A program made the position numbers and the translations under genes. Below are positions 25,697 to 49,952 of a DNA stretch of 64,000 bases, in pieces. The DNA is from Allocoleopsis franciscana PCC 7113 (GTDB taxonomy: Bacteria; Cyanobacteriota; Cyanobacteriia; Cyanobacteriales; Coleofasciculaceae), in assembly GCF_000317515.1 (NCBI RefSeq), contig NC_019738.1, positions 2,001,623-2,065,622 on the forward strand. The letters run 5' to 3'. The notes beneath the pieces were generated by a model. That model searched no databases. It was not told the origin of the DNA and saw only the letters and a list, made by a program, of their open reading frames with translations. Each line of letters opens with the position of its first letter. The stretch's first letter is position 1.

Positions 25697-25767
25697 TTTA
25701 CACTTAAATCACAACAAAATCCATTCTTCTCTGTCCAGATCCCCGACTTCTTCAAGAAGTTTGGGAT

Positions 25768-26022
25768 CTAGATCGAGCCTATAGCTACATTTGTCTTAGA
25801 TTGGATCAACCGATTCATCGCTTCAATAGTTCTAAAGTTATCAAAATCGAGGTCTTCGTTTTCAATCGTGACATTAAACTCTTTTTCTAGAAATAGAACC
25901 AGTTGCATGGCAAACATCGAATTAACAAAACCTAGAGCAAAGATATCTTCATCATCTTGGAGTTGATGATTGCCGAAATACTGGGAAAGAAAATTTTTGA
26001 TTTTAGATTTAGCTGCTTGCAT
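25768..26022 (-). CDS. Discrete acyl carrier protein (FkbJ-like)
   Basis: 84 aa, acidic. Carrier-protein serine motif ALGFVNSMFAMQLV in a four-helix-sized protein. Confidence 0.65.
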   Translation of the reverse strand: MQAAKSKIKNFLSQYFGNHQLQDDEDIFALGFVNSMFAMQLVLFLEKEFNVTIENEDLDFDNFRTIEAMNRLIQSKTNVAIGSI

Positions 26023-26062
26023 GGTGAGTTATCTTGTGTGAATTACTGCAAATTTAAGAAGT

Positions 26063-26917
26063 TCAGGTATAAGCATAAAAACCTTGCCCGCTTTTTCGAC
26101 CATACAACCCTGCATCTACCATTTTCTTGAGCAAAGGGCAGGGTCTATATTTACTGTCGTTAAAGCTTTCGTATAGAACTTCAATAGAGAAGAGAATCGT
26201 ATCTAATCCGATTAAATCAGCGGTTTCAAGAGGTCCCATTTTGTGACCAAAGCAGGTTTTGAAGATTCTATCTACATCGGAGGCTGAAGCAACTTGGTCT
26301 TGCAAAAGAAAAATTGCTTCATTAATAGTTAACATCAGTACACGATTAGAAACAAAACCGGGAGAATCATTGACTAGGATGCATTCTTTGCCCATCTGAG
26401 CCAACATTTTTTTTGCGGTTTCAATAGTTTCCTCAGAGGTATGATAGCCGCGAATCGTTTCCACCATTGATTTCATTGGTACAGGATTCATGAAATGCAT
26501 ACCAATGACTTTAGGGGCACGCTGAGTTACTGAAGCAATGCGAGTAATGGGAATAGCAGATGTATTGGCGGCAAAGACTGATTCTTTAGGACAAATGGTA
26601 TCAAGTTGAGAGTAAACCTGGTTTTTAATATTCCATTTTTCTGTCGTGTTTTCAATAACGAATTCCGCAGATTCTAGAAATTGATAATTAGTTGTAAATT
26701 TAATTCGCTGGAGGACTTCTTTGGGATTTTCGGTTTTCTCGCTTTTATTGAAAAAACCTTGAAAACGAATATTTTTACTAATTTCCTGTTTCGCCTGCTC
26801 CAAAATCTTATCGGAAATATCAACAAGAATCACTTGATGTCCGGTTTGGGCAAGGTTTTGTGCTACCCCGATACCCATAACACCAGCTCCGACTACACCA
26901 ACTGTTTGAATGTTCAT
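26063..26917 (-). CDS. 3-hydroxyacyl-CoA (ACP) dehydrogenase, NAD-binding (FkbK-like)
   Basis: N-terminal Rossmann VGVVGAGVMGIGVA. HBD-family C-terminus GRKSGQGFY. Confidence 0.85.
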   Translation of the reverse strand: MNIQTVGVVGAGVMGIGVAQNLAQTGHQVILVDISDKILEQAKQEISKNIRFQGFFNKSEKTENPKEVLQRIKFTTNYQFLESAEFVIENTTEKWNIKNQVYSQLDTICPKESVFAANTSAIPITRIASVTQRAPKVIGMHFMNPVPMKSMVETIRGYHTSEETIETAKKMLAQMGKECILVNDSPGFVSNRVLMLTINEAIFLLQDQVASASDVDRIFKTCFGHKMGPLETADLIGLDTILFSIEVLYESFNDSKYRPCPLLKKMVDAGLYGRKSGQGFYAYT

Positions 26918-31892: not shown

Positions 31893-34800
31893 TTAGCGAG
31901 TCGTTAGTCTTGATTTTTGAAATCTTTGCTTCAGGCGAGTTTTTCCCTGTTGTATTTTCTGCTCCAAGTTAGTATCTGGCTGTTGTAAAGAAGGAGCTTG
32001 GGAAAAAACTAAGTGCTTAGCTAAAGCACGAATGCTTGAGTAATTAAACAAGTCAATCAATGAGATATATTGTACCTCATCTGGCAATTCTTCTCGAATC
32101 TTGTTGTAAATTTTTATAATGAGTAGTGAATTTACACCCAAGTCAAAAAAGTTATCATTAACTCCTACTTTCTCTATCTGCATCACATATTGGACAACAG
32201 CAGCAATCGTTTTTTCGATTTCATTTTTTGGGGGTACATAAGAAACGTTTAATTCCTGAAGAAAAGCGTCTGGAGTAGGAAGCGCACGGCGGTCTACTTT
32301 ACCATTTGCTGACAGTGGAAAAGCCTCTAGAAAGACAAAGGCTGATGGCAGCATATACTCAGGCAGCTTCCCGCGCAGAAAACGACGCAATTCATCTGTG
32401 GGAATTTCCTGGTGGGGAACCACATAAGCGACCAGCCGCTTATGGCTGGGCTGTTCACCCGCTACAGTAACGACTGCTTTACCCACAGCAGGATGCTGCA
32501 CCAGCACCGCTTCAATTTCTCCTAACTCAATGCGGTATCCACCAATCTTGACTTGAAAATCTTCTCGACCCAGAAATTCAATCGTTCCATCGGGAAGAAA
32601 ACGACCCAAATCACCTGTCCGGTACAATCGCTCACCTGTACGAGGATGGGTAATAAAACTAGCCGCCGTTTTAGCTTCTTGCCGCCAGTAACCCAACGCC
32701 AGCCCCATGCCTCCGATGTAAAGCTGCCCTGGAACCCAAACAGGACAGGGTTCTAGCGCATGATTGAATACATAGAAACGCTGATTTGTCATCGGACGAC
32801 CATAGGGAATACTCTTCCAAGCTGGGTCAACCGATTGAATCGGATAGAGAATAGACCAGATAGACGCCTCAGTAGCACCCCCCAAACTAATCACTTGAAT
32901 ATCCGGGACAAGGGCTTTAATTTGAGTCGGTAAAGTTAGGGGGAGCCAATCTCCGCTCAACAAGACCAACCGCAGACTGGCTAAAGCTTCAGAGTTATTC
33001 TGGGCATAGTCCACCATCATCTGCATTAAAGCTGGCACCGAGTTCCAGATAGTGATGTTGTGCTGTACTATCAACTCTTCCCAGTGGCTCGGTTCCCGCT
33101 CAAAGGATGCTTTGGGGATGACAATCGTTCCCCCTGCTGCTAGCGTGCCGAAAATATCGTAAACCGACAGGTCAAAACTGAGGGAAGAGAGCGCCAACAC
33201 GCGGTCAGTTGGACTCACGCCAAAGCGCTGATTGATATCAATAATGGTGTTGACGGCACCCCGATGGTTAATCATCACCCCTTTGGGAACACCTGTAGAA
33301 CCGGAGGTGTAGATGAGGTAAGCTAAATCCTCTGGTGTCTGGACTGGCTCTAAAGGCTGGTTACTTTCTTCTGCTAAGTCTTCACTGTCTATACACAACC
33401 GATGAACTGACTGAGGCCAAGACAGTTTCTCATTGAGCCAAGATTGAGTGAGAACAATATTAACTTCACTGTTTCTTAGCAGGTACGAAAAACGTTCTTC
33501 AGGGAGTCCGGGATCGATGGGGACATAGGCAGCACCAGAGGCTAAAATGCCCATAATTGCAACAATTTGCTCGCATCCCTTTTCCATCACTACGGCTACC
33601 AGTTGGTTGGGAGTTGCCCCCAATTTCCGCAGTCGATGAGCAACTTGATTGGAGCGATCGCATAATTCCTGATAGGTTAGGCTACGCTCCGGCGAAATGA
33701 TAGCCAGCTCATTTCTTCGACGCTGTACTTGTTCGGTAAATAACTCATGCAGCAGCGTATCAGGAACGGGTGCGTCAGTAGCATTGATAGCATCCCGTTG
33801 CGCTAACTGTGCCGGAGGTATAAGATTTCGCCTTGTCTCAACCCAAACTGAATCGGAGGTAGCTAGCTGCTGGAGAAAGCGGCAATACGCCTCGAACATA
33901 TCCTGAATTAAATCTTCAGGGAAGAGTTCCTCGACTACATCCCAATTAAATGTCAGCGTTCCCTTTTCCTCCCATACTTGAACATCCATCCACGCCTGAG
34001 ATGCTTGGCTGATGCCATAGACTAACTCTCCAAAATGGCTGAAGGTTAAGGTTTCCTGTCCTAGCGAACTGAAGCCTAAAGTACTGGTGAAGATGACAGG
34101 TATGGTGCTGATAGCCGTCCCTTTCCTGCGAGCTAGTTCCCGCATCGCTTGCACACCATTAAAGTAGCGGTGTTCTAAATCCTGCCATAGTTGTTTCTGG
34201 AGGCGGATGGCGCGTTGGCTAAACGACTCAGAGGCTGAGTTGTCCACTGCCAGGAGGGTTGCAGAGGTAAAGCCTCCCAAGATTTCATTGACTTGGGGAT
34301 GCAGGGGCAACCGATTAAACAGGGCAAGATTGAGAGTAAATTGGGGACTCTTGCTCCAAACGGTGATGATTTCGGCAAAAGCGGCAAGTAAGACGCCAGA
34401 AGGTGTCAAACCAACTTGAGCAGCACGTTGCTTTAACTGCTGCCATTGAGTGCGATCTAAGCCACTCTCATAACGCTTGGAGCGATACTGTTTAAGTTGA
34501 TGGGGACTCTTAGCCAGGGGTAAGTCGGGTGCTGGGGGAAGAGTGTCTATACGGCTTAACCAATAATCGCGCGATCGCTGATACAGTTGGGTCTCTTGTA
34601 AACGTTGCTCTGCTAAAGCATAATCCCGGAATGAAAGTTCAAGCGGTGGCAGTGCAACTTCAGGATTTTGATACAGTTGAAACCACTGTTCAAATAGACG
34701 AAACAGACTCCAGGCATCAAAAATTAGCAAGTCGTAGCTGATGTGCAATCGAACGCGATCTGCCGTAGGCGGCAGCGCTTCGCTATCGCCCTTACGGGCG

Positions 34801-35411
34801 CGCCTTCGGCTATCGCCATCCAAACACGTTGCCCTAAACTCAAACAAAGGCCACTGATTGGCAGGCAACACCTGATGAGACATTCGTTCCCGAATAGCCT
34901 CTAACTGAGCCTTGACAACTGCCTCATCTTGTCCTATTAAATCTAAAACCTCGAACGGGTAAGGAGGCACCTGCTTGAGAATCTGCTGTTGACCATCCGG
35001 TAACACCACAGCCCTCAGCATGTCGTGACGCTCAATCAATCGTTGTAACGCCCAGTTCAAGCGTTCCAGATTTAAGTCCTTACCCTCAATTTCGTAGTAA
35101 CCATGATTGCTCACATTGCCTAACTCAAATACCCCACTGCGGCCTATCCAGAAGGCATGTTGCATATCCGTCAGAGGAAACGGTTCGTAGCGCAACTCTG
35201 GTGCTGGCACAATAGTTGGTAGAGCAGTAGAACTGACACTTATATTGCTTTGGTGCAGCAACTTAAGAATCTCTGCTTTATGCTCTGCTAAAGAGTTCCG
35301 CAGTTCTGGAGTGATTACCCCTTTGGGCGCATCAATTTCTAGTGAATTACCATTAGCAGAAAGTTTTACGCCTTTGTTGGAGAGGGTGGTTAAAAGTGAA
35401 TGTAAATCCAT
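31893..35411 (-). CDS. NRPS Cy-A(Cys-type)-PCP with a TubC-like N-terminal docking domain
   Basis: N-terminal about 55 aa [47 protein letters not shown]. Cy [14 protein letters not shown] and [44 protein letters not shown]. Confidence 0.9.
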   Translation of the reverse strand: [1172 protein letters not shown]

Positions 35412-35620: not shown

Positions 35621-37180
35621 TTACAGACTCAACTTCTCTCGTTCTTCTTCATGTGTTTTAGCAGCATCAATTGGCTCTGTTGCAATTAGATTGACCAGCA
35701 CTAATTGATTAAGCAATTGTTCTGATAGTTGAGCAATGGTGTTGTCTCCAAAGAAGCTCTCCATTGGCACTTGTACCTGGAGGTCGGTTTCAATTCGGCT
35801 CCTAAACATCAATGCCATCAAGGAGTCCAGTAATGAAGCAAAAGATTGCTGAGGCGTGAATTGATTTGGGGGAAGCTGTAAAGTAGTGGTGAGCCATCCT
35901 ATAAGGTAAGTTTCCAGCATCTGCCGTCTTTTCTCTGGTTCAGCAGCTAGAAGCTGTTCTCTTGAAAGAGTTTCCGTTTGGTGAATAGGAGGATTTTCTT
36001 GGGAACGAGAGTCTGCTCCTGCTAAACGAATCTTCTCTTGTTCCGGTGTAACACTAATGGGAGGAGCTGGAACCGCTCCTAGCGCTACATCACCCCAACG
36101 CATCACCATTGCGCCTGCTGTGGCACCTGCACCGTTTGTGTAAACGAGAACCAGGTCATTTTCACGCAGTTTGCCCGATCTCGTCGCGTGGTACAAGTTG
36201 GCGATGGGAAGAACTGGTCCGATATTGGCGTATCGGGGGTAAAGATTGATGGTACGTTCTGGATCGATGCCTAATGCCCGCGTACAGACGCTAGCATACC
36301 AGGCGGTCGGCGTATTGAAGGCAAAAAAGTCGATGCCCTCAAGGGACACTCCTGCTGCTGTTGCCGCTTCTTTGCAACAAGTGCGGACGAAATCAACGGC
36401 AGTTTCAGCAAGCATACTTGCGTTCTCACCCGTTCGAGTACGCATTCGAGGCACGCCTTGAGCATCCGTTACGAGTTCGTGGGAGTAAGCGCCGCAGGTG
36501 GCAGTGGTGCTGATGATTTTGGTGCCGAGGACTCCCTGATTGGGTTTGAGCGCACTCACGACAAAGGCTCCAGCGCCGTCACCCATCGACCAAGAAAGCG
36601 TGTCTTCATCGTCTACCGTGTTAGAACCAAATTGCGAAACCACCACCAGTACATTGCGGTACTCTCCCGTTTGCACCAAGGCACGGGCATTTTGCAGTGC
36701 CACCAAAGCACTCGAACAGGTTGATTCCAGATTCCAGGCAGGACAATGCAAGTTGAGTTGACGGACGAGGGAGGAGGTATTACTAAGTCCGATGGGTTCA
36801 CAGAAAAGTGAGGTGGCGATAGCGAAGCGCTGCTGCGAAGCGCAGATCGCCAATTCGACTTCTTCAGGATGAAGGTTTGCCGCCTCAAGTGCCTCTTTTG
36901 CCGCCCGATACTCCAGTGTCAGCGGCGACTCATCATGACTGAGTACTCGCCGTTCGACATTCCCTCGAAACGGGTCGTTTAAATACGGGGCTACCTCTTG
37001 CGACCAGATTTCAATTCCATCGTCGTTGGAGGTGGATTGAGAGGTTCTAGGCAACCGAACTCGTTTTGGTTGAGCTTGAACCGCTAACTCTGGAAACTTC
37101 TCGTACCAATAATCATTGGTACGAATCAGACTGGGAAAGCTTACGGCAAGCGAACGAATACCAATGGAGTGACTCGTCAC
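35621..37180 (-). CDS. Thiolase-fold KSIII-like enzyme fused to a C-terminal ACP domain
   Basis: Cys-containing condensing-enzyme motif NLESTCSSALVALQNA. Last about 100 aa form a carrier domain (FASLLDSLMALMF). Confidence 0.55.
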   Translation of the reverse strand: MTSHSIGIRSLAVSFPSLIRTNDYWYEKFPELAVQAQPKRVRLPRTSQSTSNDDGIEIWSQEVAPYLNDPFRGNVERRVLSHDESPLTLEYRAAKEALEAANLHPEEVELAICASQQRFAIATSLFCEPIGLSNTSSLVRQLNLHCPAWNLESTCSSALVALQNARALVQTGEYRNVLVVVSQFGSNTVDDEDTLSWSMGDGAGAFVVSALKPNQGVLGTKIISTTATCGAYSHELVTDAQGVPRMRTRTGENASMLAETAVDFVRTCCKEAATAAGVSLEGIDFFAFNTPTAWYASVCTRALGIDPERTINLYPRYANIGPVLPIANLYHATRSGKLRENDLVLVYTNGAGATAGAMVMRWGDVALGAVPAPPISVTPEQEKIRLAGADSRSQENPPIHQTETLSREQLLAAEPEKRRQMLETYLIGWLTTTLQLPPNQFTPQQSFASLLDSLMALMFRSRIETDLQVQVPMESFFGDNTIAQLSEQLLNQLVLVNLIATEPIDAAKTHEEEREKLSL

Positions 37181-38010
37181 AACACGACTCCTAAACTTCG
37201 GTAACTATCACCTGGAAAGGTGCATGACTCTGCACTCAGCACTGAACGTCGTCATAGCTGGCACTCAGGTGGTAATTCCATTGATTGATTTATGCCTGTA
37301 GGTCACTAATGAGAATTACTAGCGACTGACTGACTCATGTATCTTACTACTTGACAAGACATTGACAAGTCTTTCATTGAATATTTTTTCTTATTTGCAG
37401 AAAAAAATTGATAGTAATTTATTATTAATGAGTACGAAAGCGACCATTAAGGGCATCTAGTCGGTCATGGGAGGCGAAGGTTTCCATTCGGAGAAAAGCA
37501 AGTATGCTGATGCTATCAGCCTTGTTCGGAGGCGATTGCGCCCAAATCCGATGCACCTTCGATCAGGCTCGAATCGGTATCAAGCGGCGATCGCTAGCGC
37601 CTGCGATCGCAAGTGACCCTAAAAATTTTTAAAATTTTATTGCAAATAAATACCAGTTAGCTGTATTGTAATTCTGGATCAGTAAACGATAAAATCAACT
37701 TAGTTAATGAGAAAATTTATCGTGAGTTGTACCCACATCATGCATAGAGGGTTGGGCGCATCAAGTCTGCCATCAAAGGTGCAGGCTGGCTTCAAATAAC
37801 TAACCAGCTTACCCTCACAGGAATGCGTGAAGGCGTGACTTGGAACAAAACGGCACTAGTACCGCTACCCTTTATGTCAAAAGTCAAAAAGCTTTATTTC
37901 TAGACTTTTGAGCAAGTTTTCAGATGGTAGGCTCATTTGGGTCGTCATGTACTAGTCACATCTCAAAAGAAAGCCATCTGGGGCAATTAGATTTCCGAGG
38001 TGTTTTCTGC
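37181..38010. promoter_or_regulatory. Divergent promoter region between the two biosynthetic operons. AT-rich, with a tandem TTGACAAG repeat and a Fur-box-like AT tract.
   Basis: ttgacaagac/attgacaagtc at 37351-37369. tgatagtaatttattattaatga at 37408-37432. Both operons start here. Confidence 0.3.
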
Positions 38011-38274
38011 ATGGATACTTCAAAAGCGATGGATACTCTCAAAGCAATACTTGCTGACTTAGGTATTCCCCAAGAATCGCTGCACAATGACACACTACTG
38101 CACGAGGATTTACAACTTGATTCCACTGAAATAGTAGAAATTGCCCTAGGACTGAAACGCCAACTAGGGGTAAGCGTGAAGCTGGAAGGTCGGCAGGATA
38201 TGACACTGGCTCAAGTCTGCAACAAAGTCGAAGCGGCGCTGCTGGCCAACTCCAACTCTAACCATGTCTCTTGA
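38011..38274 (+). CDS. Free-standing aryl/acyl carrier protein
   Basis: MDTSKAMDTLKAILADLG... with LQLDSTEIVEIALGL (DS phosphopantetheine site). In frame inside track ORF 37924..38274. Stop overlaps the start of the following PPTase. Confidence 0.6.
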   Translation: MDTSKAMDTLKAILADLGIPQESLHNDTLLHEDLQLDSTEIVEIALGLKRQLGVSVKLEGRQDMTLAQVCNKVEAALLANSNSNHVS

Positions 38275-38683
38275 AGTTAAAGGACTCGGTATTGATATCG
38301 CGCCCATCCCCCGGATTGCTAGATTAATTGAGCGGTACGATCGCGAAACGTTAAATTTGTTGTTTACTCCGGGCGAACTCGACCGTTGCCAATCCTCCAG
38401 TCATCCCCACCGTTCTTTCGCCGTGTGCTTTGCCACCAAGGAAGCTGTGGGAAAAGCTTTAGGAACTGGATTAGCAGGCATTGGCTGGAATGAAATTGAA
38501 GCCAACCTTACCCAAGACAGGTTAACCGTTCACCAGCATGGGGACGCCAGCATTCAGGCGAAACGATGGGGTATCCACACATGGTTAGCGACATGGTGCC
38601 ATTGGGATGAACACGTACTAGTTCACGTTCTCGCCTTATCAAACATAAGCGTCAAAGAAAAATTTTATGAAAAGTGTTTCTGA
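38264..38683 (+). CDS. AcpS-type (holo-ACP synthase-like) 4'-phosphopantetheinyl transferase
   Basis: 139 aa. GLGIDIAPIPRI and FATKEAVGKALGTG match AcpS motifs. Coupled to the carrier protein upstream and the ligase downstream. Confidence 0.65.
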   Translation: MSLEVKGLGIDIAPIPRIARLIERYDRETLNLLFTPGELDRCQSSSHPHRSFAVCFATKEAVGKALGTGLAGIGWNEIEANLTQDRLTVHQHGDASIQAKRWGIHTWLATWCHWDEHVLVHVLALSNISVKEKFYEKCF

Positions 38684-40229
38684 ACAGTTGCCGAGTGCCT
38701 TCAATGTGGCAGCTTATTTCTTGAACAGCAATATAGAACGGGGAAATAGCCAAAAAGTCGCCTGTTTTTATCAGGACGATACCTATACTTACGATCAACT
38801 CAACCGCTTTGTCCAACGCACGGCGCGATCGCTCCTCACTCTCGATTTAGAGCGGGAAAATAGGATTGCCATTCTTTTGCCTGATACTCCCGAGTTAGTC
38901 TTTGCCTTTTGGGGAGCAATTTGGATGGGTGCCGTACCTGTTCCCATTAACACCGCCTGTAGCATTGATGAAATCCAGTATATTCTGCAAGACTCGCGAG
39001 CCAAAATCTTACTGACGACTCAGGAATGGCAAAAGAAACTCACTCCCATTCCGTCTCAGTTTTTGCAGCACATTCTACTCAAAGATGGAGACAACCCATT
39101 TTTATCCCGACTCACCCAACAGCCTGACGAACCCTTCCCCTGTGCCGAAACCTCTCGCGACGAACCCGCCTTCTGGCTTTACACCTCCGGCAGTACAGGC
39201 AAACCCAAAGGGGTGGTTCACTTGCATCAAAGCATGGTGGTTTGTGCTGAACGCTATGCTAAAGCCACACTTGGCTTGCAACCCGATGACATCACCTATT
39301 CGGTTGCCAAGGTGCCTTTCGCCTACGGTTTAGGAAATACGCTTTATATGCCAATGGCAGTCGGTGCAGCCACCGTATTGTCAGATGCCAGCAACGCATT
39401 TGATATTATCTCCGACATTCAGCGCTATCAACCGACCGTCTTTTTTGGCATCCCCAGTATTTATGCCAACCTTCTCGCCGTACAGGATATCGCACCTTTA
39501 GATGTCTCCTCCCTGCGCTTATGCATCTCTGCCGCCGAACAGCTTCCTGAGAGTATCTGGCAAAAGTGGCGAGAGACTTACAACCGGGAAATTTGTGAAG
39601 GAATTGGCACAACTGAGTTTTTGCACATTTTTCTTGCCAACCGCTTAGGTGAGTGCAAACCTGGCACCTCCGGTCGCCCCGTTCCGGGTTACGATGTCCG
39701 AGTCGTTGATGAAAATGGACTTCCCTGTCCTCCAGGCGAGATTGGCGACCTTTTGGTAAGTGGAGAAAGCCTGATGTTGGGGTACTGGAACCGACTCCGA
39801 GAAACGCGGCAAGCACTCTATGGCAACACCATGCGAACGGGGGATAAGTATCTGTGTGATGCTGACGGCTATTTTAAGTTTATGGGTCGTAAGGACGATT
39901 TGTTTAAAGTAAACGGTCAGTGGGTTTCTCCTTTGGAAATTGAGGATATCTTGCACCAGCATCCCCAAGTGCTAGAAGTGGCGGTGGTTCCTGAATCTAA
40001 TGAGGGCGAACAACTCACTCGAGTCGTTGCTTATGTCAGCCTCAAACCCGGACAAGAACCGTCCCCTGAATTGGAAACTAGTATTTGTAAATTTGCCAAA
40101 CAGCAACTTCCTCATTTTAAGGCTCCAAAAACCGTGCGCTTTGTGGAACAGTTACCGCGTACTGCGACGGGGAAAATTCACCGGAAATTGATAGGAAAAA
40201 ATCAAGTCCTAGCTGTAGGCACTCACTGA
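38667..40229 (+). CDS. Aryl-CoA ligase of the benzoate-CoA ligase family (candidate salicylate/aryl acid activating enzyme)
   Basis: NVAAYFLNSN, FWLYTSGSTGKPKGVVHLH, VPFAYGLGNTLYMP, MRTGDKY, RKDDLFKVNGQWVSP, LPRTATGKIHRKL. These are typical of the BadA/BclA-type family. Confidence 0.8.
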   Translation: MKSVSEQLPSAFNVAAYFLNSNIERGNSQKVACFYQDDTYTYDQLNRFVQRTARSLLTLDLERENRIAILLPDTPELVFAFWGAIWMGAVPVPINTACSIDEIQYILQDSRAKILLTTQEWQKKLTPIPSQFLQHILLKDGDNPFLSRLTQQPDEPFPCAETSRDEPAFWLYTSGSTGKPKGVVHLHQSMVVCAERYAKATLGLQPDDITYSVAKVPFAYGLGNTLYMPMAVGAATVLSDASNAFDIISDIQRYQPTVFFGIPSIYANLLAVQDIAPLDVSSLRLCISAAEQLPESIWQKWRETYNREICEGIGTTEFLHIFLANRLGECKPGTSGRPVPGYDVRVVDENGLPCPPGEIGDLLVSGESLMLGYWNRLRETRQALYGNTMRTGDKYLCDADGYFKFMGRKDDLFKVNGQWVSPLEIEDILHQHPQVLEVAVVPESNEGEQLTRVVAYVSLKPGQEPSPELETSICKFAKQQLPHFKAPKTVRFVEQLPRTATGKIHRKLIGKNQVLAVGTH

Positions 40230-40253: not shown

Positions 40254-41576
40254 ATGGTTACAGAATTAAAAACCGCTCTATCGTATCAAGAAACTTTTGT
40301 ATCGGGCAGAAGGAATGCAGTAGCGGTTTTACAGAATTTTTTGAAAGCGGGTATTTTTTCCAATTATGTGATGTATGAAAAAGACAACGAAGTTCGCATT
40401 GCGGGCAATGAGCTAGCCAAGGTGTCCGTCAGCAAAACTACAGTCTGTCTTGAGGGTATGGGGAAATCTTCCTCTCAACCTGTCAGCGATCCGTTTAAAC
40501 AAGTCGGTGATTTACTGAGGTCTTTATCTATTAAAAATTGGACCGCTTATGGTTATGTAGCCTTTGACATGGCTGGCTTCTATTCGTCCTACTCTAAAGC
40601 AATGGAGCAGCCACTTCTTTATTTATTAGTTCCTGAAACCGAACTGCGTTTTACGTCAGAAGGCGTTCATGTTAAAAGCACCAGTTCATTAGAGCAAATT
40701 CGAGAACTACTATCTATTGATAGCAAGCTCCCCGATTATGTACCCATCTCTCTCGCTGAAGATTTCGCGGACTGCGAAAATTACTCCCACCGTATTGAGA
40801 GGTTAATTGAGGCAATTCAAAATGATGAATTGCATAAAGCTATTATCTCTCGCTCCAAGAAACTTATCGGCAATTTGGATGTATTGGGAACTTATGCCGT
40901 TGGAGCCAAAGCGAATAATTCAGCGCGTTCCTATTGTCTAAATATAGGAGACGTGCGTGCGGTTGGCTTTAGTCCTGAAATTTTGATGCAAGTTAATAAA
41001 GACGGGTTTGTCGTGACGAATCCTTTAGCAGCAACTCGTCCTCGCGGTCAATCTAGTGAAGAGGATGCACGCTTCAATGATGAACTTTTCACCGATGCTA
41101 AGGAGGTGAAAGAACACGCACTTTCTATCTGGTTGGCACAAAGCGAACTGAGTTCATTTTGCTTTCCAGAAACGGTTCGGGTTTTTAATTTTATGGAGGT
41201 GAAAAAATATCGCTGTGTGCAGCACCTTTCTTCGAGAGCTGGCGGTCAGCTAAAAGATGGAAATACGTTGTGGGATGCGTTGAAGGTTTTGTTTCCAGGT
41301 ATTACTGTTTCTGGAATTGATAAACAAAAAGCTTTAGATTGGATCGATCGCTTGGAGGACGAACCGAGAGGAATTTATGCGGGTGGTATTGGTTGGGTTG
41401 ATAGTAATGGGGAATCGGATTTAGCGATCGCAATTCGTTCTGTCTACCAGTACGGCAATGAAATCTACCTCAATGCTGGAGCGGGTATTGTTGCTGAATC
41501 AGTGCCTCAAAATGAGTATATCGAGTCGGTTAACAAAATGAATACGATGCTGACGAATTTAGTTTTGCAATCTTGA
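40254..41576 (+). CDS. Chorismate-utilising enzyme (salicylate synthase / isochorismate synthase family)
   Basis: 440 aa. C-terminal chorismate-binding signature PRGIYAGGIGWVDSNGESDLAIAIRS. Size fits MbtI/Irp9-like salicylate synthases. Confidence 0.7.
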   Translation: MVTELKTALSYQETFVSGRRNAVAVLQNFLKAGIFSNYVMYEKDNEVRIAGNELAKVSVSKTTVCLEGMGKSSSQPVSDPFKQVGDLLRSLSIKNWTAYGYVAFDMAGFYSSYSKAMEQPLLYLLVPETELRFTSEGVHVKSTSSLEQIRELLSIDSKLPDYVPISLAEDFADCENYSHRIERLIEAIQNDELHKAIISRSKKLIGNLDVLGTYAVGAKANNSARSYCLNIGDVRAVGFSPEILMQVNKDGFVVTNPLAATRPRGQSSEEDARFNDELFTDAKEVKEHALSIWLAQSELSSFCFPETVRVFNFMEVKKYRCVQHLSSRAGGQLKDGNTLWDALKVLFPGITVSGIDKQKALDWIDRLEDEPRGIYAGGIGWVDSNGESDLAIAIRSVYQYGNEIYLNAGAGIVAESVPQNEYIESVNKMNTMLTNLVLQS

Positions 41577-41594: not shown

Positions 41595-42026
41595 ATGAAT
41601 ATTATCGGTCATGGGATTGACATTGTGGACGTGAGATGCATCCAAGAACTTGTCGAACAAACGGGGGAGTGTTTTGAACGTCAATGCCTCACGGCTGCGG
41701 AACTCAATGCTTCGGGGTTCCGTACTCACCGCTTTGAGTATCTTGCTAGCCGTCTCGCTGCCAAAAAAGCGGTTCAAAAAGCGCTCGGTGGAGATTGCCA
41801 ACAGCCTATCTCGTGGCATGAGATTGAGATCCAAAAGCTACCGACGGGTGAACCGTTTGTCGTGCTGTATGCCACTACCCTTGAAATTGCCGCGAAACTT
41901 GGCATTACCAAGTGGCTGCTGAGTATCAGCCATACCCCATCTTATGCGACAGCCAGTGCGATCGCCCTTCAGGCGCTGGCAAAGCCAATTGCCCTTCTAT
42001 TCTCCAACAGTGGTGCACCTTACTAA
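41595..42026 (+). CDS. AcpS-type 4'-phosphopantetheinyl transferase (second copy)
   Basis: 143 aa. MNIIGHGIDIVDV, LASRLAAKKAVQKALGG and SISHTPSYATASAIA match AcpS motifs. Confidence 0.75.
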   Translation: MNIIGHGIDIVDVRCIQELVEQTGECFERQCLTAAELNASGFRTHRFEYLASRLAAKKAVQKALGGDCQQPISWHEIEIQKLPTGEPFVVLYATTLEIAAKLGITKWLLSISHTPSYATASAIALQALAKPIALLFSNSGAPY

Positions 42027-42168: not shown

Positions 42169-44757
42169 GTGGACACTCGATTGAAACTACAACAATTATT
42201 TCCTAGTTTTTTGTTCGCTAGCACGGTTTCTGTACTCGTTGCAGCTCCGGCTTTTGCTCAAGTTATACAAGTAACAGGCGTGCGTGTCTCTGCCACATCG
42301 AGCGGAGTTAATGTGATTTTAGAGACCAATTCAGACACTATTCCCCAAGTGTCTACGGCAAGCTTGGATAAGACGTTACTGACTGATATTTTCAATACTC
42401 AACTGCGTCTACCAGATGGTCAAGCGTTTCGTCAAGACAACCCGGTGGAAGGGATTTCGTCTGTCACGGTGACTCAGCAATCTCCAAACACCATTCGAGT
42501 TGCGGTAACGGGTACAACAGAGGTGCCGACGGTTCAACTTAGTCCCAGTCCATCAGGATTCGTCCTGAGCCTGAGTACTCCATCGGCTACGGCTCAAACT
42601 CCATCAACTGAAACTCCTACAGCACAAGAGCCTCAAACTCAGCCGCCTACCGCACCTGAAGTCACCACCCCTTCAGAGGATAAACCCGAAGCCCCGACGG
42701 CTGCACCCGAGCCAGAAGAGGAGATTGAAATCGTGGTGACGGGGGAACAAGATGAAGATAGATACTTTGCCCCCAATGCCAGCACCGCGACGCGCACCGA
42801 TACTCCACTGCGCGACATTCCTCAGTCAATTCAGGTGATTCCGCAAGAGGTAATTAAAGATCAACAGGCAACCGATTTAAGAGATGTCCTAAGTAACTTG
42901 AGTGGCGTAACACCCAGTGGCTCAGCCGGTAATGCGGTTACTAATTTTACGATTCGAGGATTTCAACAGGCACCCATCTTACGCGACGGCTTTAGACAAA
43001 ATCCTTTGAATCGGGGAGTACCACAACTTGCCGACCTCGAGCGGGTTGAAGTTCTCAGAGGCCCTGCATCAATTTTATACGGTGAGGTGCAGCCAGGAGG
43101 TGTGATTAACCTAGTGAGTAAACAGCCCCTCACTGAGCCATTTTATGAAGCGGAACTGCAAATTGGCAACCGCGAGCTGTTTCGACCCCGGATTGACATT
43201 TCAGGTCCATTGACAGCAAACCGCAGCTTGCTCTATCGCTTGAATTTGGCATACGAAAGCAGTGAACCGTTTCAAGACTTTGAGCAAGGATTTGAGCAAT
43301 TTCTGATTGCACCCGTAGTCACTTGGAAGCCGAGCGATCGCACAGATGTCACGTTTCGACTACAGTATTCTGATCGAGAAGCCCCCGCAGATAATGGTTT
43401 AGTTGCGTTTGGCAACCGAGTTGTTGATGTTCCTTTCGATACCATTACCACTTCTCCAAACGACCCTGGGATTCGGGAAAACAACTTCAGCATCGGGTAC
43501 GACTTAGAGCATCGCTTTAGCGACAACTGGCGACTTCGCAACGCCTTCCAGTTTTCGGATTTCTCAAGCGATATCGGTCTCAGGAATCCTTTCTTCATTA
43601 ATGAAACTACAGGAATTTTGGGTCGTGTTCCTGTTCGACAACAAACTGATACGCAAAATTATAATTTGCAAACCAATATTGTCGGGGAATTTGCCACAGG
43701 CTCGATCAAGCATACACTTTTGTTTGGAGTCGATCTTAATCGAATTGAAAATGCCCAACTCCTATGGGGAGGTTCCTTCGGCAATCCGTTGCCACTCAAT
43801 ATCTTCGCTCCTGATTATGGCGCAGATCCTAATATTGATTTTAAGACCTTACCCTTCTTATCTGGCTTTGGCCCTTCAAAAGTTCAAACCGATCGATTGG
43901 GAGTTTATATACAAGATCAAGTCAAGTTTCTAGACAACCTAATCCTAGTGGCAGGGCTTCGCTATGATACAGTAAACAGCACCAGCGCTCCTTTCCTTGA
44001 TGTAGACAATACTGGACCTGAAACGACTCAAAACGATGACGCACTAACCCCCCGAATTGGAATTGTCTATCAACCCATCCCAGCGATTTCGCTCTACGGC
44101 AGCTACTCCCGGTCATTTACACCCAGCAGCGAAACTACAGCCAACGGCGATCCGCTTGAACCAGAACGAGGTGAGGGATTTGAAGTTGGTGTCAAAGCCG
44201 AATTGCTCGAAGGTAGACTGTTGACCACCCTGGCATATTTTGACATCACCAAACAAAATGTTGCCACAGCCGATCCCAATAATTTGTTTGGGGTTGTGGC
44301 AGCGGGCGAACAGCGAAGTCGCGGGGTTGAGCTGGACGTGACTGGAGAAATCTTGCCGGGATGGAATATTATTGCCTCCTATGCCTACACCGATGCCGAA
44401 GTTACAGCAGACAACGAAATTCCTGTGGGCAATCGGTTGTTTAACGTCCCTGAACATAGTGCCAGTCTGTGGACGACCTATGAAATCCAACAGGGGAATT
44501 TGCAAGGCTTGGGTTTTGGTGTTGGATTTAACTTTGTTGGGGAACGTCAGGGCGATTTAGCCAATAGTTTTCAGGTAGACAGCTATTTTCTGACCAATGC
44601 GGCTATTTTTTATCGTCGCAACAACTGGCGAATTGGCCTCAACGTCAAGAACCTGTTCAATATCGACTACATTCAAGCGACTGATAATCTTAGGCGGGCT
44701 GGAATTGAACCAGGCGATCCGTTGACGATCATTGGCTCAGTTTCAGTGGAATTTTGA
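42169..44757 (+). CDS. TonB-dependent outer-membrane siderophore receptor
   Basis: Signal peptide. N-terminal extension, then Pro/Thr/Glu-rich linker. Plug domain (DTPLRDIPQSIQVIPQEV). Long beta-barrel ending in C-terminal aromatic SVSVEF. Confidence 0.85.
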   Translation: MDTRLKLQQLFPSFLFASTVSVLVAAPAFAQVIQVTGVRVSATSSGVNVILETNSDTIPQVSTASLDKTLLTDIFNTQLRLPDGQAFRQDNPVEGISSVTVTQQSPNTIRVAVTGTTEVPTVQLSPSPSGFVLSLSTPSATAQTPSTETPTAQEPQTQPPTAPEVTTPSEDKPEAPTAAPEPEEEIEIVVTGEQDEDRYFAPNASTATRTDTPLRDIPQSIQVIPQEVIKDQQATDLRDVLSNLSGVTPSGSAGNAVTNFTIRGFQQAPILRDGFRQNPLNRGVPQLADLERVEVLRGPASILYGEVQPGGVINLVSKQPLTEPFYEAELQIGNRELFRPRIDISGPLTANRSLLYRLNLAYESSEPFQDFEQGFEQFLIAPVVTWKPSDRTDVTFRLQYSDREAPADNGLVAFGNRVVDVPFDTITTSPNDPGIRENNFSIGYDLEHRFSDNWRLRNAFQFSDFSSDIGLRNPFFINETTGILGRVPVRQQTDTQNYNLQTNIVGEFATGSIKHTLLFGVDLNRIENAQLLWGGSFGNPLPLNIFAPDYGADPNIDFKTLPFLSGFGPSKVQTDRLGVYIQDQVKFLDNLILVAGLRYDTVNSTSAPFLDVDNTGPETTQNDDALTPRIGIVYQPIPAISLYGSYSRSFTPSSETTANGDPLEPERGEGFEVGVKAELLEGRLLTTLAYFDITKQNVATADPNNLFGVVAAGEQRSRGVELDVTGEILPGWNIIASYAYTDAEVTADNEIPVGNRLFNVPEHSASLWTTYEIQQGNLQGLGFGVGFNFVGERQGDLANSFQVDSYFLTNAAIFYRRNNWRIGLNVKNLFNIDYIQATDNLRRAGIEPGDPLTIIGSVSVEF

Positions 44758-46449: not shown

Positions 46450-47562
46450 CTAAGTTCGAGTTAGATAGCAGTGGCAATCAGGCTTTTCAATCAGCGTTTC
46501 AACCAAGGCATTTAGAGTCACTGCGGCTAAAAGACTACCACCAAGACTCCCTTGAATCGTAACGGACGGAATTGATGTTGCCATCAGTCGCCGCTTTGCT
46601 GCTGGGGCATGGCTAAAGCCAATCGGCATCCCAATCACAAGGGCTGGTTGAATTTGCTGTTGCTCAATCAGCTTACAGGCAGTAAGCAAGACGGAAGGGG
46701 CATATCCAATCACAAGTATGCATCCCTTTGGAATCTGTTGTAACCGTTGCTGCCATTGGTCATGATTCCAAAAGGCTTGCTCAGCTTCACTGACTCCAGT
46801 AATGTGAGGGTCATCAATCAGCGTTTCAAACGCGCATCCTAAATGGACTAACCGAGTTTGATCGAGGGCCGCCGCAACAACCGGAACATCGGTCAAGACT
46901 GGACACCCGACTTTCAGCGCATCCCGTGCAGCCGCGATCGCATTTTGGCTTAACTGAACCGAGTTCACCAAACTGACATCGCCACACGCCAGCACCAATT
47001 GATGCAGCAAATGGACGGTGATTTCAGAATAACCAGACAAATCAGGCAGCAGGTGTTGTAGGGATTCCTGAAATGCTTCTGGATGAGTATTTGTCTCTGC
47101 ATCCAGGTTAGTCCATAACTGATCGAGTTTTCCTAACCCCTCTTGGGCATCTACATCCAGTTGCTTCAGTTGTGCTAGGGCTTCAGCTTGAATGATTTGG
47201 CAGTTTTGATCACGTCCCAGCAATCCCTCCAAAGCAGATGCTGTTTGGCGGAGCCGGGTGATCTGCTGAATCACAGAGCGATATTGCTGCTGCAACTGAA
47301 TCATCAGGGTTGGATCGACGGTCTCTTCTGAATGGCTGTCTAGAAGTTGTCGAATGTGGGATAACTGAAAGCCTTGCTGTTTCAAAGCAATGACCCGCTG
47401 TAGCCGTTGCACATCCTGCTGAGTGTAGAGGCGGTAATTGCCTTCTGAGCGTTGTACTGGGGGAAGCAATTTGAGCGTGTGATAATGGCGTACCATGCGA
47501 GGGGTAACGCCACCGCCCACCGCATCCGTCAGTTCTTTAATCGTCAAGTGTTCGGTCTTCAT
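46450..47562 (-). CDS. coaR: CoaR-like cobalt-responsive regulator (MerR HTH fused to a precorrin isomerase CobH-like domain, C-terminal Cys-His-Cys)
   Basis: MerR HTH LTIKELTDAVGGGVTPRMVRHYHTLKLL. CobH-like segment GYAPSVLL ... VIGMPIGFSHAPAAKRRL ... GSLGGSLLAAVTLNAL. Terminal KPDCHCYL. Confidence 0.8.
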   Translation of the reverse strand: MKTEHLTIKELTDAVGGGVTPRMVRHYHTLKLLPPVQRSEGNYRLYTQQDVQRLQRVIALKQQGFQLSHIRQLLDSHSEETVDPTLMIQLQQQYRSVIQQITRLRQTASALEGLLGRDQNCQIIQAEALAQLKQLDVDAQEGLGKLDQLWTNLDAETNTHPEAFQESLQHLLPDLSGYSEITVHLLHQLVLACGDVSLVNSVQLSQNAIAAARDALKVGCPVLTDVPVVAAALDQTRLVHLGCAFETLIDDPHITGVSEAEQAFWNHDQWQQRLQQIPKGCILVIGYAPSVLLTACKLIEQQQIQPALVIGMPIGFSHAPAAKRRLMATSIPSVTIQGSLGGSLLAAVTLNALVETLIEKPDCHCYLTRT

Positions 47563-47644
47563 CCTTTCAGTTTACTCAAAACCTTGACATTGACACTAAT
47601 GTTAAGGTTTAGGCTGAAAGGGTAGGAATCTGACGTAAAAAAAC
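47563..47644. promoter_or_regulatory. Divergent coaR/coaT promoter-operator with tandem TTGACA and flanking 8-bp inverted repeat
   Basis: cctttcag (47563-47570) pairs with ctgaaagg (47614-47621). ttgacattgaca at 47584-47595. Confidence 0.4.
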
Positions 47645-49570
47645 ATGGTTGCGGCTACCCGTTTTACTTCTCGATTTACCAACCTTTTCAAGGAACACCC
47701 CGATGCAGTCGCCGCGATCACCTGTGGAGTTCTGGTATTTTTAGGCTGGCAAATGCTCAACTTTGGTTGGCTGGGAGTTGCCCTTTTCATTCTGACGGCG
47801 GCTTATGTGATTGGTGGGTTTGAAAGTGCCCGCGAAGGGTTGACAACCTTATTTAAGGAAAAAGAATTCGATGTAGACCTGCTAATGATTGTGGCAGCGT
47901 TGGGAGCCGCAGGTTTGGGACTCTGGCGACAAGAATATTATCTGATTGTGGATGGGGCGGTTCTGATCCTGATTTTTGCCATCAGCGGGGCGTTAGAAGG
48001 GTATGCGATGCAACGGACGGAGCGTAGTATTCAGGGATTGATGAGCCTAACCGCTGATACGGCGCGAATGGTGCGGAATGGGCAGGAGAGAATTATCCCC
48101 GTTTCAGAACTCAAAATTGGGGATCAAGTTCTGATCAAACCAGGAGAATTAGTGCCAACAGATGGCTTAGTTATAGAAGGATTTAGCACTCTCAACCAAT
48201 CTTCCATTACAGGAGAATCGATTCCTGCCGAGAAAACGGTTGGGGATGAAGTCTTTGCAGGTACGATTAATGGTCATGGCGCACTGCGGCTCAAAATTCA
48301 TCAACCGCCCGAAAGTAGCTTAATTCAGCGAGTCATTCGTCTGGTTCAGCAAGCCCAAACGGAAGCACCGCCTTCTCAGCAGTTCATTGAACGATTTGAG
48401 CGCGGCTACGCCAAGTTGATTGTAATTGCCGGAATCTTGTTGGGTACATTACCGCCGTTTCTGTTGGGCTGGAACTGGGAAGAAACCATTTACCGGGCAT
48501 TGATTTTCCTGGTCGTTGCCTCACCCTGTGCGCTCATGGCTTCGATTATGCCGACGCTGCTCTCCGGTATTGCTAATGGAGCGCGTCACGGCATCCTGTT
48601 TAAGAACGGGGCACAGTTGGAGCGGATTGGACGAGTGCGGGCGATCGCCTTTGATAAAACTGGAACGCTGACCATAGGAAACCTTCAAGTCGTGAACGTT
48701 CTCTCAACTCAGCCATCCACCGACAAACTTCTGCAAGTAGCGGCGGCACTGGAAAGCTTGTCAGAGCATCCGATTGGAGAGGCGATCGCTCAGTTCGCCA
48801 GTCAGCAAAACCTGCACTGGACAACAGCCGTGAACGTTCAAGCCCAGGCAGGACAGGGAATCACTGGAGAAATCAACTCCAAGATGGCGATCGTTGGTAA
48901 AGCAGCGTTTGTCCAGGCGCAAATGAACGATGCTGCAAAAACCCTGATAGAGCAGAGCCAACAGTGGGAATTTGACGGCAAAACTGTGGTTTGGGTTGCC
49001 TATGCCAGAGAAATCTTAGGCATCATTGCCGTTGCGGATACGGTACGACCGGCAGCCGCAAAAGCGATCGCCCGATTAAAACGGTTAGGAATTGAGCAGA
49101 TTGTGATGCTAACTGGAGATAACTCGCGTACCGCCCACAGCATTGCTCAACAGGTTGGAGTCGATCAGGTTTATGCAGAGCTTTTGCCCGAAGAGAAAGT
49201 TGATATCATTCGCAAACTCCAGAAGCAGTATCAGGCAGTAGCAATGATTGGAGACGGCATCAATGATGCTCCTGCCCTGGCTCAAGCGGATGTGGGAATT
49301 GCGATGGGAGCCGCAGGTAGTGATGTGGCGTTGGAAACGGCAGATATTGTATTGATGGCGGATCGTCTGGAGCGACTAGAACATGCGATTCGTCTGGGTC
49401 GTCGCGCTCAAGGTGTGGTAAAACAAAACATTGTGTTTGCCTTGAGCTTCGTGGTAATTCTGTTGATTACAAACTTTACAGGTAATATCACCTTGCCGTT
49501 AGGAGTCTTGGGGCATGAAGGCTCAACGGTAATTGTGACATTAAGTGGATTGCGATTGCTGAGAGGTTAA
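47645..49570 (+). CDS. coaT: P1B-type heavy-metal ATPase, CoaT-like cobalt exporter (SPC motif, no N-terminal metal-binding domain)
   Basis: VVASPCALMAS (SPC motif), DKTGTLT, GDGINDAP, HEGSTVIV. 641 aa. Divergent from coaR. Confidence 0.85.
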   Translation: MVAATRFTSRFTNLFKEHPDAVAAITCGVLVFLGWQMLNFGWLGVALFILTAAYVIGGFESAREGLTTLFKEKEFDVDLLMIVAALGAAGLGLWRQEYYLIVDGAVLILIFAISGALEGYAMQRTERSIQGLMSLTADTARMVRNGQERIIPVSELKIGDQVLIKPGELVPTDGLVIEGFSTLNQSSITGESIPAEKTVGDEVFAGTINGHGALRLKIHQPPESSLIQRVIRLVQQAQTEAPPSQQFIERFERGYAKLIVIAGILLGTLPPFLLGWNWEETIYRALIFLVVASPCALMASIMPTLLSGIANGARHGILFKNGAQLERIGRVRAIAFDKTGTLTIGNLQVVNVLSTQPSTDKLLQVAAALESLSEHPIGEAIAQFASQQNLHWTTAVNVQAQAGQGITGEINSKMAIVGKAAFVQAQMNDAAKTLIEQSQQWEFDGKTVVWVAYAREILGIIAVADTVRPAAAKAIARLKRLGIEQIVMLTGDNSRTAHSIAQQVGVDQVYAELLPEEKVDIIRKLQKQYQAVAMIGDGINDAPALAQADVGIAMGAAGSDVALETADIVLMADRLERLEHAIRLGRRAQGVVKQNIVFALSFVVILLITNFTGNITLPLGVLGHEGSTVIVTLSGLRLLRG

Positions 49571-49952
49571 TAGACCTCTTGCAAAAGTCGCGGCTGAGGT
49601 ACTATGAGAGCTAAAATTATGCGCTCGCAACAAAAGAGTCAGCGATCGCCTCGCTCCATTCATAAGTAAAAAGCGAGCGCTGTTGACACTCTTTCCAGAA
49701 TAACCCATCAGAACTAATGACATGAACCACTAGTAAGGGCGACCTTGATATTGCAAAAAGAGTTAGTGGGTTGATTCAATGCATTGACCAAAAACTAACC
49801 ATTATAGCATTTTTTATTTTTATGGCAATTATTTGCAATATTTATTTGTATTTTTTAACAAAATACTGCAATATAAAATTGAAGAGGGCAAACAAGAGAG
49901 ACGTACCTCAAACTGATTAACTGCTCAACACTAAAGGGTTTTTGGCAAAATC

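Follow-up and report, generated by a model that had tools for sequence, protein, structure and literature searches.

Introduction

Aryl-capped siderophores represent the textbook form of initiation by a nonribosomal peptide synthetase (NRPS), in which an aryl-AMP ligase is paired with an aryl carrier protein (ArCP). In this study we analyzed a 64,000-nt stretch of the genome of the cyanobacterium Allocoleopsis franciscana PCC 7113 (assembly GCF_000317515.1, contig NC_019738.1, positions 2,001,623–2,065,622 of the forward strand; hereafter the window), in which a siderophore assembly-line operon begins with a gene for a ketosynthase III (KSIII)-like domain fused to an acyl carrier protein (ACP). 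Our best model, based on sequence, is that the loading part of this predicted hydroxyphenyl-thiazoline siderophore line would be a thioester relay and not an aryl-AMP ligase/ArCP pair.

CybF, from work by D'Agostino et al. in 2022, is said to be the furanolide synthase of cyanobacterin biosynthesis. According to passages of papers on this pathway, the protein, which is annotated as a 3-oxoacyl-ACP synthase, uses the coumaroyl-coenzyme A (CoA) that CybC provides to O-acylate an acyloin, and then closes the furanolide (PMC12395478, PMC8777810, PMC13288894). ChlB3, which has a Cys113, His296, Asp301 triad, transfers 6-methylsalicyl from the ChlB1 ACP to the ChlB2 ACP, and the active site of DpsC is Ser-His-His (PMC9573744). 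Among ligases of the benzoate-CoA type, relatives that use CoA as acceptor and relatives that use an ACP are both known (PMC12664062): EncN attaches benzoate to an ACP directly, AuaEII and then AuaE act via CoA to an ACP, and RauF/SauE provide further precedents for direct ACP loading (PMC12664062, PMC10295502).

Gene sets similar to the one described here have been drawn for other cyanobacteria. In the putative anachelin cluster, "KACP," "CoAL," and "SalS" were drawn as salicylate-starter genes (Calteau et al., 2014; PMC4247773). Genes for a benzoate-CoA ligase and a carrier are present in the leptochelin cluster, together with one for an "oxoacyl-ACP synthase III" that is listed merely among others of the neighborhood, and the leptochelins have a halogenated salicylate joined directly to an oxazoline (PMC11240249). 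The figure of the lusichelin cluster includes an ACP, a phosphopantetheinyl transferase (PPTase), an AMP ligase and a salicylate synthase (PMC12210259). An earlier interpretation of the window made without database searches (the sequence-only reading) had called its starter module unusual, which is correct relative to the enterobactin/yersiniabactin paradigm but not within cyanobacteria, in which the cassette is common, has been annotated since 2014 and was drawn by Calteau et al. (2014; PMC4247773).

Gene Content and Distribution of the Starter Cassette

The minus strand of the window carries an NRPS/polyketide synthase (PKS) siderophore cluster between about 1.2 and 37.2 kb, and a divergent accessory operon lies on the plus strand. 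The order of the latter is free ACP, PPT1, ligase, salicylate synthase, PPT2 and a TonB-dependent receptor with an AMIN domain, with overlaps of 11 nt between the free ACP gene and PPT1 and of 17 nt between PPT1 and the ligase gene. The features needed for the argument are as follows (Cy, heterocyclization; A, adenylation; T, thiolation domain).

35621–37180, minus strand: KSIII-like::ACP didomain protein, 519 aa, GTG start (Pfam ACP_syn_III, ACP_syn_III_C, PP-binding)
36071–37180, minus strand: KSIII-like domain, about residues 1–370 (HMMER alignment to FabH structures)
35681–35938, minus strand: fused ACP domain, about residues 415–500 (PF00550 at residues 432–488)
35624–35647, minus strand: C-terminal tail EEREKLSL, putative short linear docking motif (SLiM; family conservation)
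31893–35411, minus strand: first NRPS module, TubC-type docking domain-Cy-A-T (PF18563, Condensation, AMP-binding, PP-binding)
38011–38274, plus strand: free ACP, 87 aa (PF00550, 23.8 bits)
38264–38683, plus strand: PPT1, AcpS-type phosphopantetheinyl transferase (PF01648, TIGR00556)
38667–40229, plus strand: aryl acid ligase of the benzoate-CoA ligase family, 520 aa (TIGR02262)
40254–41576, plus strand: salicylate synthase, MbtI/Irp9 type, 440 aa (TIGR03494)
41595–42026, plus strand: PPT2, second AcpS-like protein (PF01648, 42.3 bits)

The gene content and domain families, along with the Cys-Asn-Asn site, docking pair and cassette conservation described below, were read from the sequence. The didomain protein is encoded by the first gene of the assembly-line operon, as the sequence-only reading had stated, and its three Pfam matches have E-values of 1.9e-14 (ACP_syn_III), 2.8e-12 (ACP_syn_III_C) and 2.5e-8 (the C-terminal PP-binding domain); it is 100% identical to an Allocoleopsis protein at NCBI. 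The same reading had seen no salicyl-AMP ligase/ArCP pair, and Pfam scans of the window open reading frames (ORFs) of ≥150 aa agreed with it, as neither a stand-alone adenylating enzyme of the EntE/YbtE type nor an ArCP was found in them.

The free ACP, PPT1, ligase, salicylate synthase, PPT2, KSIII::ACP and Cy-A-T are grouped in at least 14 further loci of cyanobacteria, a recurrence which indicates that the arrangement is not due to chance. The cassette is mostly colinear, usually on one strand, in at least 13 genomes, and the genera include Coleofasciculus, Phormidium, Acaryochloris, Microcoleus, Waterburya, Stenomitos, Calothrix, Nostoc, Halotia and others. The locus of Chamaesiphon (L013) lacks both PPTase genes and still has the free ACP adjoining the ligase. 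All of the named homologs of the KSIII::ACP fusion come from cyanobacteria, as do those of the free ACP. The full cassette is also present in a leptochelin producer, Leptothoe sp. EHU-05/26/07-4 (locus L024). In this locus a flavin-dependent Trp-halogenase-like gene directly follows that for KSIII::ACP (17170–19531), an adjacency that hints that salicylate may be halogenated while carrier-bound in Leptothoe.

The KSIII-like Domain Has a Cys-Asn-Asn Active Site

The AlphaFold2 (AF2) model of KSIII-like::ACP has a mean predicted local distance difference test score (pLDDT) of 71, with most of the ketosynthase (KS) core at 70–96, and its comparison by Foldseek to FabH, PqsC, PqsD and BioZ gave template modeling (TM, target) scores of 0.8–0.87 at 18–25% identity, which confirms a thiolase/KSIII fold. 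In the HMMER alignment to FabH structures, Cys155 (36716–36718, in the motif ESTCSSALVAL) is at the position of the FabH nucleophile and Asn319 (36224–36226) is at that of FabH Asn274. The position of FabH His244, however, is occupied by Asn289 (36314–36316), and the HQAN motif of FabH reads FNTP here. The site is, therefore, Cys-Asn-Asn, and neither the Cys-His-Asn triad of FabH nor the Cys-His-His triad, the two between which the sequence-only reading had proposed to decide. Cys155 and Asn319 are both present in all 118 full-length homologs, while Asn289 is present in 116 and replaced by Ser in the other two. The Leptothoe KSIII::ACP has Ser at the His position (FAFSMPTAW).

Malonyl decarboxylation by FabH depends on the His and the Asn, whereas transacylation is performed by the Cys alone. 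A Cys-Asn-Asn site without the decarboxylation His thus favors acyl transfer over Claisen condensation, and the absence of the His argues against a decarboxylative condensation by the KSIII-like domain. That the site is a working one is indicated by Cys155, the NTP motif and Asn319, which are near-invariant in more than 100 sequences and in the clade of stand-alone relatives, among which is an active type of enzyme (see below). This near-invariance also speaks against the idea that the ligase loads the fused ACP directly and that the KSIII-like domain is a non-catalytic scaffold or dimerization, editing or gate-keeping domain. Such direct loading has precedents in EncN and RauF/SauE (PMC12664062, PMC10295502) and would suit the incomplete canonical triad, but it would leave the free ACP unexplained as well, and we consider it improbable.

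None of the placements that had been suggested for the domain (FabH, ChlB3/CerJ or DpsC) fits. It falls far short of the FabH family models, with 88.5 bits against a cut-off of 292.1 for TIGR00747 and 98.9 against 249 for NF006829. The Cys-His-Asp triad of ChlB3 and CerJ is absent, there being no His at the aligned position; CerJ was matched only at an E-value of 2.7e-6, and a PDB search with the KSIII-like domain found no match to ChlB3 at E ≤ 1e-3 and none to DpsC. The site also differs from the Ser-His-His of DpsC, as the nucleophile is Cys and the other two positions are both Asn. Instead, the domain groups with a clade that we infer to be that of CybF-type furanolide synthases.

A 27-nt in-frame insertion (36821–36847, minus strand), which encodes residues 112–120 (ICASQQRFA), is lacking in the homologs compared. 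It splits a would-be GCGATCGC (HIP1-like) site, with ATC repeated at both ends and GCGCTTCGC as an internal repeat. The corresponding loop has low confidence in the AF2 model.

The Nearest Relatives Are Stand-Alone KSIII Proteins of a Presumed CybF Type

A census of homologs of the KSIII-like domain was based on representatives at 50% identity, from a search of 1.8 billion representatives. The Cys-Asn-Asn reading was found in 36 of the 104 representatives, and the canonical His returns only at ≤34% identity. The search also revealed a sizeable clade of stand-alone proteins of about 360–380 aa which share an xNTPxA motif. Closest to the KSIII-like domain are stand-alone proteins with 49–56% identity that retain the Cys, Asn and Asn (loci L014–L017 and L022). 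Their clusters comprise an aromatic ammonia lyase, an acyl-CoA ligase, a thiamine pyrophosphate (TPP) enzyme, the KSIII and a short-chain dehydrogenase/reductase, without an ACP, and the gene layout around the stand-alone relatives is the CybB-C-E-F-G order of the cyanobacterin cluster. No protein labeled as being from the cyanobacterin strain was among the matches listed in a profile search of the stand-alone clade.

The domain from Allocoleopsis is thus a member of the His-less xNTPxA clade of KSIII proteins but not one of its stand-alone members partnered by a TPP enzyme (CybE), as it is fused to an ACP within an NRPS/PKS line, and ORF domain scans identified no TPP enzyme in the window. 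If the equivalence of these relatives to CybF holds, then the closest characterized relative of the domain is an enzyme to which a partner ligase supplies the aromatic acyl thioester and whose first step is an acyl transfer.

Two variations were seen among the stand-alone relatives. One cyb-like cluster has two tandem genes for His-less KSIII proteins, of 375 and 380 aa (L014, 9992–12397), and the KSIII copy of L016 has degenerate active-site positions, with Tyr where Asn289 stands (YGVIS).

The Fused ACP and Its Predicted Docking to the Cy Domain

The phosphopantetheine-bearing Ser453 of the fused ACP (35822–35824, LLDSLMAL) is invariant in the 118 homologs, and helix II of this ACP is like that of type-I PKS ACPs. 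The extreme C-terminus has the consensus E-E-R-E-x-L-S-[LFI] across the KSIII::ACP family, Leptothoe included. Among the megasynthase subunits of the window an EEREKLSL-like tail is unique to KSIII::ACP, and the free ACP has no such tail. Similarly, the TubC_N domain, PF18563, occurs within the window only on Cy-A-T, at residues 4–54 (35250–35402), with 67.5 bits against a cut-off of 26. Short disordered C-terminal motifs of carriers have been described, of less than 15 aa and with charged and hydrophobic residues among the last five, that bind a β-hairpin docking domain (βhD) ahead of a condensation (C) or Cy domain (PMC9113145). The charged residues and hydrophobic ending of EEREKLSL agree with this description of SLiMs, as does its low pLDDT, which is consistent with disorder. 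Through this putative pair of tail and βhD, the fused ACP would pass its acyl group to the Cy domain.

The first NRPS module has the Cy motif DLLIFDAWS at residue 227. The signature of its A domain is D-L-Y-N-L-S-L-I-W-K, which we take to be that of cysteine by the Stachelhaus code. With a cysteine-like A domain following a Cy domain, the predicted first product is a hydroxyphenyl-thiazoline.

These findings bear on whether the KSIII-like domain could be a true condensing enzyme of the PqsD/FabH kind, which would extend salicyl or another primer with malonyl held on the free ACP and in this way yield a separate acyl piece. While its fold and nearest solved structures are those of FabH, PqsC and PqsD, and the free ACP resembles that of fatty acid synthase (FAS), the His for malonyl decarboxylation is lacking, the better-matched FabH model is missed by a wide margin (98.9 vs. 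249 bits), there is no malonyl transferase within the accessory operon and the fused ACP is predicted to dock on a Cy domain. Furthermore, salicyl sits directly on the oxazoline in leptochelin, so that no C2 unit lies between salicylate and heterocycle (PMC11240249). The missing His, the failed FabH cut-offs and the lack of a C2 unit led us to reject a condensing role, to which we attach only a very slight probability. The lost His, the docking pair and the structure of leptochelin likewise disfavor the second proposal of the sequence-only reading, that KSIII::ACP makes a separate acyl piece.

The Free ACP and Two Unequal AcpS-Like Proteins

The sequence-only reading had noted a free carrier of 88 aa with a dedicated PPTase. 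The carrier and an adjoining PPTase gene are both present, although the carrier has 87 aa and there are two AcpS-like genes in place of a single PPTase. A 116-aa start at 37924 given for the free ACP by the ORF finder is unsupported by its orthologs, and the 87-aa form was taken. Its Ser38 is at 38122–38124, in LQLDSTEIVEIAL, and its helix II is acidic and FAS-like (DSTEIVE), unlike the type-I-like fused ACP. The orthologs are 55–91% identical and are directly upstream of the ligase gene wherever they were found, with PPT1 between the two where it is present. Of the 203 homologs of the free ACP, the best 120 are all stand-alone proteins (76–119 aa).

PPT1 is of the AcpS type, with 56.8 bits (2.6e-15) to PF01648 and 59.3 bits to TIGR00556 (cut-off 45.35), and its catalytic Asp (GIDI) and Glu (FATKEA; KEA) are retained in all 14 orthologs. 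Its alignment to solved AcpS structures, however, covers only residues 5–80, the C-terminal half being atypical. PPT2 has the opposite profile: it aligns to AcpS structures over its full length, with the SISH strand kept (TIGR00516, 70.6 vs. 59.8 bits), but has AAKKA in place of AAKEA. The Glu position is K, T or Q in 13 of its 15 orthologs and the Asp of the first motif is E or V in 10 of the 15, so that PPT2 departs from AcpS in its catalytic residues. The Leptothoe copy of PPT2 is under the Pfam threshold.

The active sites of AcpS are located between protomers. Based on this and on the complementary nature of their defects, PPT1 and PPT2 may assemble into a hetero-oligomer; alternatively, PPT2 could be a pseudo-enzyme.

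The Ligase and the Salicylate Synthase

Resemblance of the ligase to benzoate-CoA ligases had been noted in the sequence-only reading, and it is borne out by a score of 495.7 bits to TIGR02262, the benzoate-CoA ligase family (cut-off 375.25). The best solved relatives are the benzoate-CoA ligase 2v7b (1e-110) and the anthranilate-CoA ligase 4wv3 (2.8e-110), with which the FAYGLGN and LHIF stretches are conserved. TIGR02275, the model for DHB/salicyl-AMP ligases, was absent from the 25 best-scoring families. In the ORF scans of the window the ligase was also the only enzyme found that would activate an aryl acid. A fatty-acyl-AMP ligase, which had been raised as a possibility for this protein, is rejected given its clear membership in the benzoate-CoA ligase family.

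The chorismate enzyme had been singled out for a check of salicylate synthase residues. It passes TIGR03494 marginally (327.8 vs. 325.15 bits), its best solved relatives are MbtI (5.7e-65, 6.4e-58) and Irp9 (2e-55), and the catalytic Lys (in HKAIISR) and Glu (in SPE) line up with those of MbtI. As the enzyme passes the salicylate synthase model and resembles MbtI and Irp9, salicylate is the predicted starter unit.

A Proposed Salicyl Relay

The chemical steps proposed here, along with the thiol acceptor of the ligase and the pairing of PPTases with carriers, are inferred. The MbtI-type synthase would convert chorismate to salicylate. The ligase would adenylate salicylate and thioesterify it onto the phosphopantetheine of the FAS-like free ACP, which PPT1 would keep in the holo form, with salicyl-CoA a possible by-path or precursor in this step. 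The KSIII-like domain would then take salicyl onto Cys155, where it is not expected to be condensed as the decarboxylation His is lacking, and pass it to the Ser453-phosphopantetheine of its own ACP. Finally, the fused ACP would dock by its EEREKLSL tail on the β-hairpin docking domain of Cy-A-T, and the Cy domain would link salicyl to cysteine bound on the peptidyl carrier protein and cyclize the product.

We consider a relay of salicyl by way of Cys155 and the fused ACP, taken in general terms, to be probable. An aryl shuttle from KSIII to ACP to Cy, the route put forward in the sequence-only reading, appears to fit best with the invariant Cys, the lost His, the docking tail and domain and the position of salicyl on the heterocycle of leptochelin. 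The part assigned to the free ACP, as salicyl intermediate between the ligase and Cys155, is more tentative, and we place it slightly below an even chance. Our reason for choosing it is that some acyl group must be carried by a conserved holo carrier, and the neighboring genes provide for none but salicyl. Its conservation, its coupling with PPT1 and the ligase, its FAS-like helix II and, by analogy, the precedents of EncN, RauF/SauE and ChlB3 favor this assignment. The fullest form of the proposal is a new NRPS initiation module in which the ligase loads a FAS-like ACP, a repurposed His-less KSIII of the furanolide-synthase clade passes the acyl group to a tailed ACP, and the AcpS-like proteins act as a single hetero-oligomeric PPTase or PPT2 serves as a non-catalytic carrier-binding partner; taken as a whole this is rather unlikely.

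Several points weigh against the relay or parts of it. The AF2 model is only moderate in quality. The stand-alone relatives are regarded as CybF-type by their gene order and not by comparison with the CybF sequence, and an Asn in place of the His could still permit other chemistry, as CybF itself makes C–C bonds. No fusion of the free ACP to a ligase, KSIII or PPTase was seen among the best 120 of its 203 homologs. We found no experimental work in the literature on the salicylate relay or its components, the sole match being Calteau et al. (2014). In addition, the sequence of the ligase is that of a typical CoA ligase, and the presumed CybF relatives use CoA thioesters without an ACP; were salicyl-CoA used directly, the route would have no need of the free ACP.

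This last point leads to an alternative in which the ligase releases free salicyl-CoA and the KSIII-like domain, as a salicyl-CoA:ACP transacylase, uses it to load the ACP to which it is fused. An accessory part would then fall to the free ACP and PPT1, for example in buffering, in presenting the substrate for tailoring or halogenation, or in another step. Such a route would agree with the strong TIGR02262 match, with the fact that all of the best solved relatives of the ligase form CoA esters, with the use of aryl-CoA by the presumed CybF relatives in clusters that have no ACP (PMC12395478) and with the general priming of FabH-type enzymes by acyl-CoA. It gives no necessary function, however, to the free ACP and PPT1, which are strictly conserved and coupled in translation, and in Chamaesiphon (L013) the free ACP has stayed by the ligase though both PPTase genes were lost. 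We regard this alternative as the less likely course, although one to be taken seriously, and the relay through the free ACP as our working model.

If the relay is true, cyanobacteria use a different and widespread solution to aryl NRPS initiation, and a function can be assigned to a KSIII gene that published cluster analyses left among unassigned neighbors or depicted with no mechanism attached. Two seemingly unrelated chemistries, the priming of NRPSs and the formation of furanolides, would also be linked through one His-less KSIII clade. The ligase, KSIII::ACP and docking tail form a compact, portable unit that could feed non-native aromatic acids into assembly lines initiated by Cy or C domains, and the signature of the cassette could sharpen the rules by which cyanobacterial metallophores are sought in genomes.

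Other Features of the Window

Two further features flank or follow the starter genes.

42169–44757, plus strand: AMIN-domain TonB-dependent siderophore receptor (TIGR01783, 459 bits; Plug, β-barrel, AMIN)
37181–38010, no strand: divergent intergenic region between the assembly-line and accessory operons (direct reading of the sequence)

The receptor marks the cluster as a siderophore cluster. The divergent promoter region has AT-rich sequences that resemble Fur boxes (taatgagaattacta, ttgatagtaatttattattaatgag, and ttaatgagaaaatttatcg; 37300–37720), which would fit with iron regulation.

Downstream in the assembly line (23438–26917, minus strand) is a cassette of FkbH-like (haloacid dehalogenase family), FkbI-like (acyl-CoA dehydrogenase) and FkbK-like (3-hydroxyacyl-CoA dehydrogenase) genes, inside which, at about 25.7–26.0 kb, is a small ACP-like ORF (LGFVNSMFAMQLV). 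This content suggests a hydroxymalonyl- or methoxymalonyl-ACP extender for the PKS modules. We rejected the free ACP of the accessory operon as a carrier for this cassette, since the cassette has an ACP-like ORF of its own and the free ACP travels with the ligase elsewhere. An NRPS of 2656 aa (15413–23383, minus strand) has a second Cy-type N-terminus (RYQPFPLTDVQQA) without a β-hairpin docking domain, and the product probably contains a second heterocycle from this Cy-type start. A stand-alone pyridoxal phosphate (PLP)-dependent decarboxylase of 556 aa (10178–11848, minus strand) is encoded between the NRPS and PKS genes.

Past the border of the cluster (46450–50915) there are genes for a MerR-CbiC fusion, a P-type ATPase and an orange carotenoid protein. 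Beyond these is a low-GC stretch (51773–57286; GC of 0.30–0.32 vs. about 0.46) that contains a gene for a phage-type integrase (56111–57286) and an ORF of 921 aa for which Pfam gave no match. This stretch is probably a mobile element that has been inserted beside the cluster.

Comparison with Known Systems

The accessory set described here is the same as that of the putative anachelin cluster and of the leptochelin and lusichelin clusters, for which the respective papers give annotation only and do not discuss the missing His, the docking tail, the relation to CybF or the unequal PPTases. Downstream, the Allocoleopsis assembly line differs from all three by its FkbH/I/J/K-type cassette, PLP decarboxylase and thioesterase.

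CybF shares with the KSIII-like domain the KSIII fold and the pairing with a ligase from which an aromatic acyl thioester would come, and an acyl transfer is its initial step. Unlike the domain, however, CybF is a stand-alone protein without an ACP or docking tail, has a TPP enzyme as partner and acylates a hydroxyl before forming C–C bonds, whereas in Allocoleopsis the acceptor would be a phosphopantetheine thiol, in the priming of an NRPS. ChlB3 and CerJ are also thiolase-fold enzymes with an aryl acid on an active-site Cys and carrier-to-carrier transfer, as is proposed here, but they have a Cys-His-Asp triad, only weak similarity to the domain and no ACP fusion, and do not feed the Cy domain of an NRPS.

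The EncN/EncC and AuaEII/AuaE/AuaB systems share with this locus an enzyme of the benzoate-CoA ligase type and an aromatic acid that ends on a discrete ACP, either directly or via CoA, and AuaEII (4wv3) is one of the two best solved relatives of the ligase. In aurachin biosynthesis, however, the transfer from CoA to ACP is made by a second ligase homolog and not by a KSIII, and the acceptor feeds a ketosynthase/chain length factor pair and not an NRPS. Finally, capping by YbtE, PchD, MbtA or EntE with an ArCP has the same outcome, in that salicylate from an Irp9/MbtI-type enzyme reaches a Cy domain and yields a hydroxyphenyl-thiazoline or -oxazoline. At the Allocoleopsis locus, an enzyme of the CoA ligase family, two ACPs, a KSIII-like domain and two AcpS-like proteins would replace the EntE-type enzyme and ArCP of this classical route.

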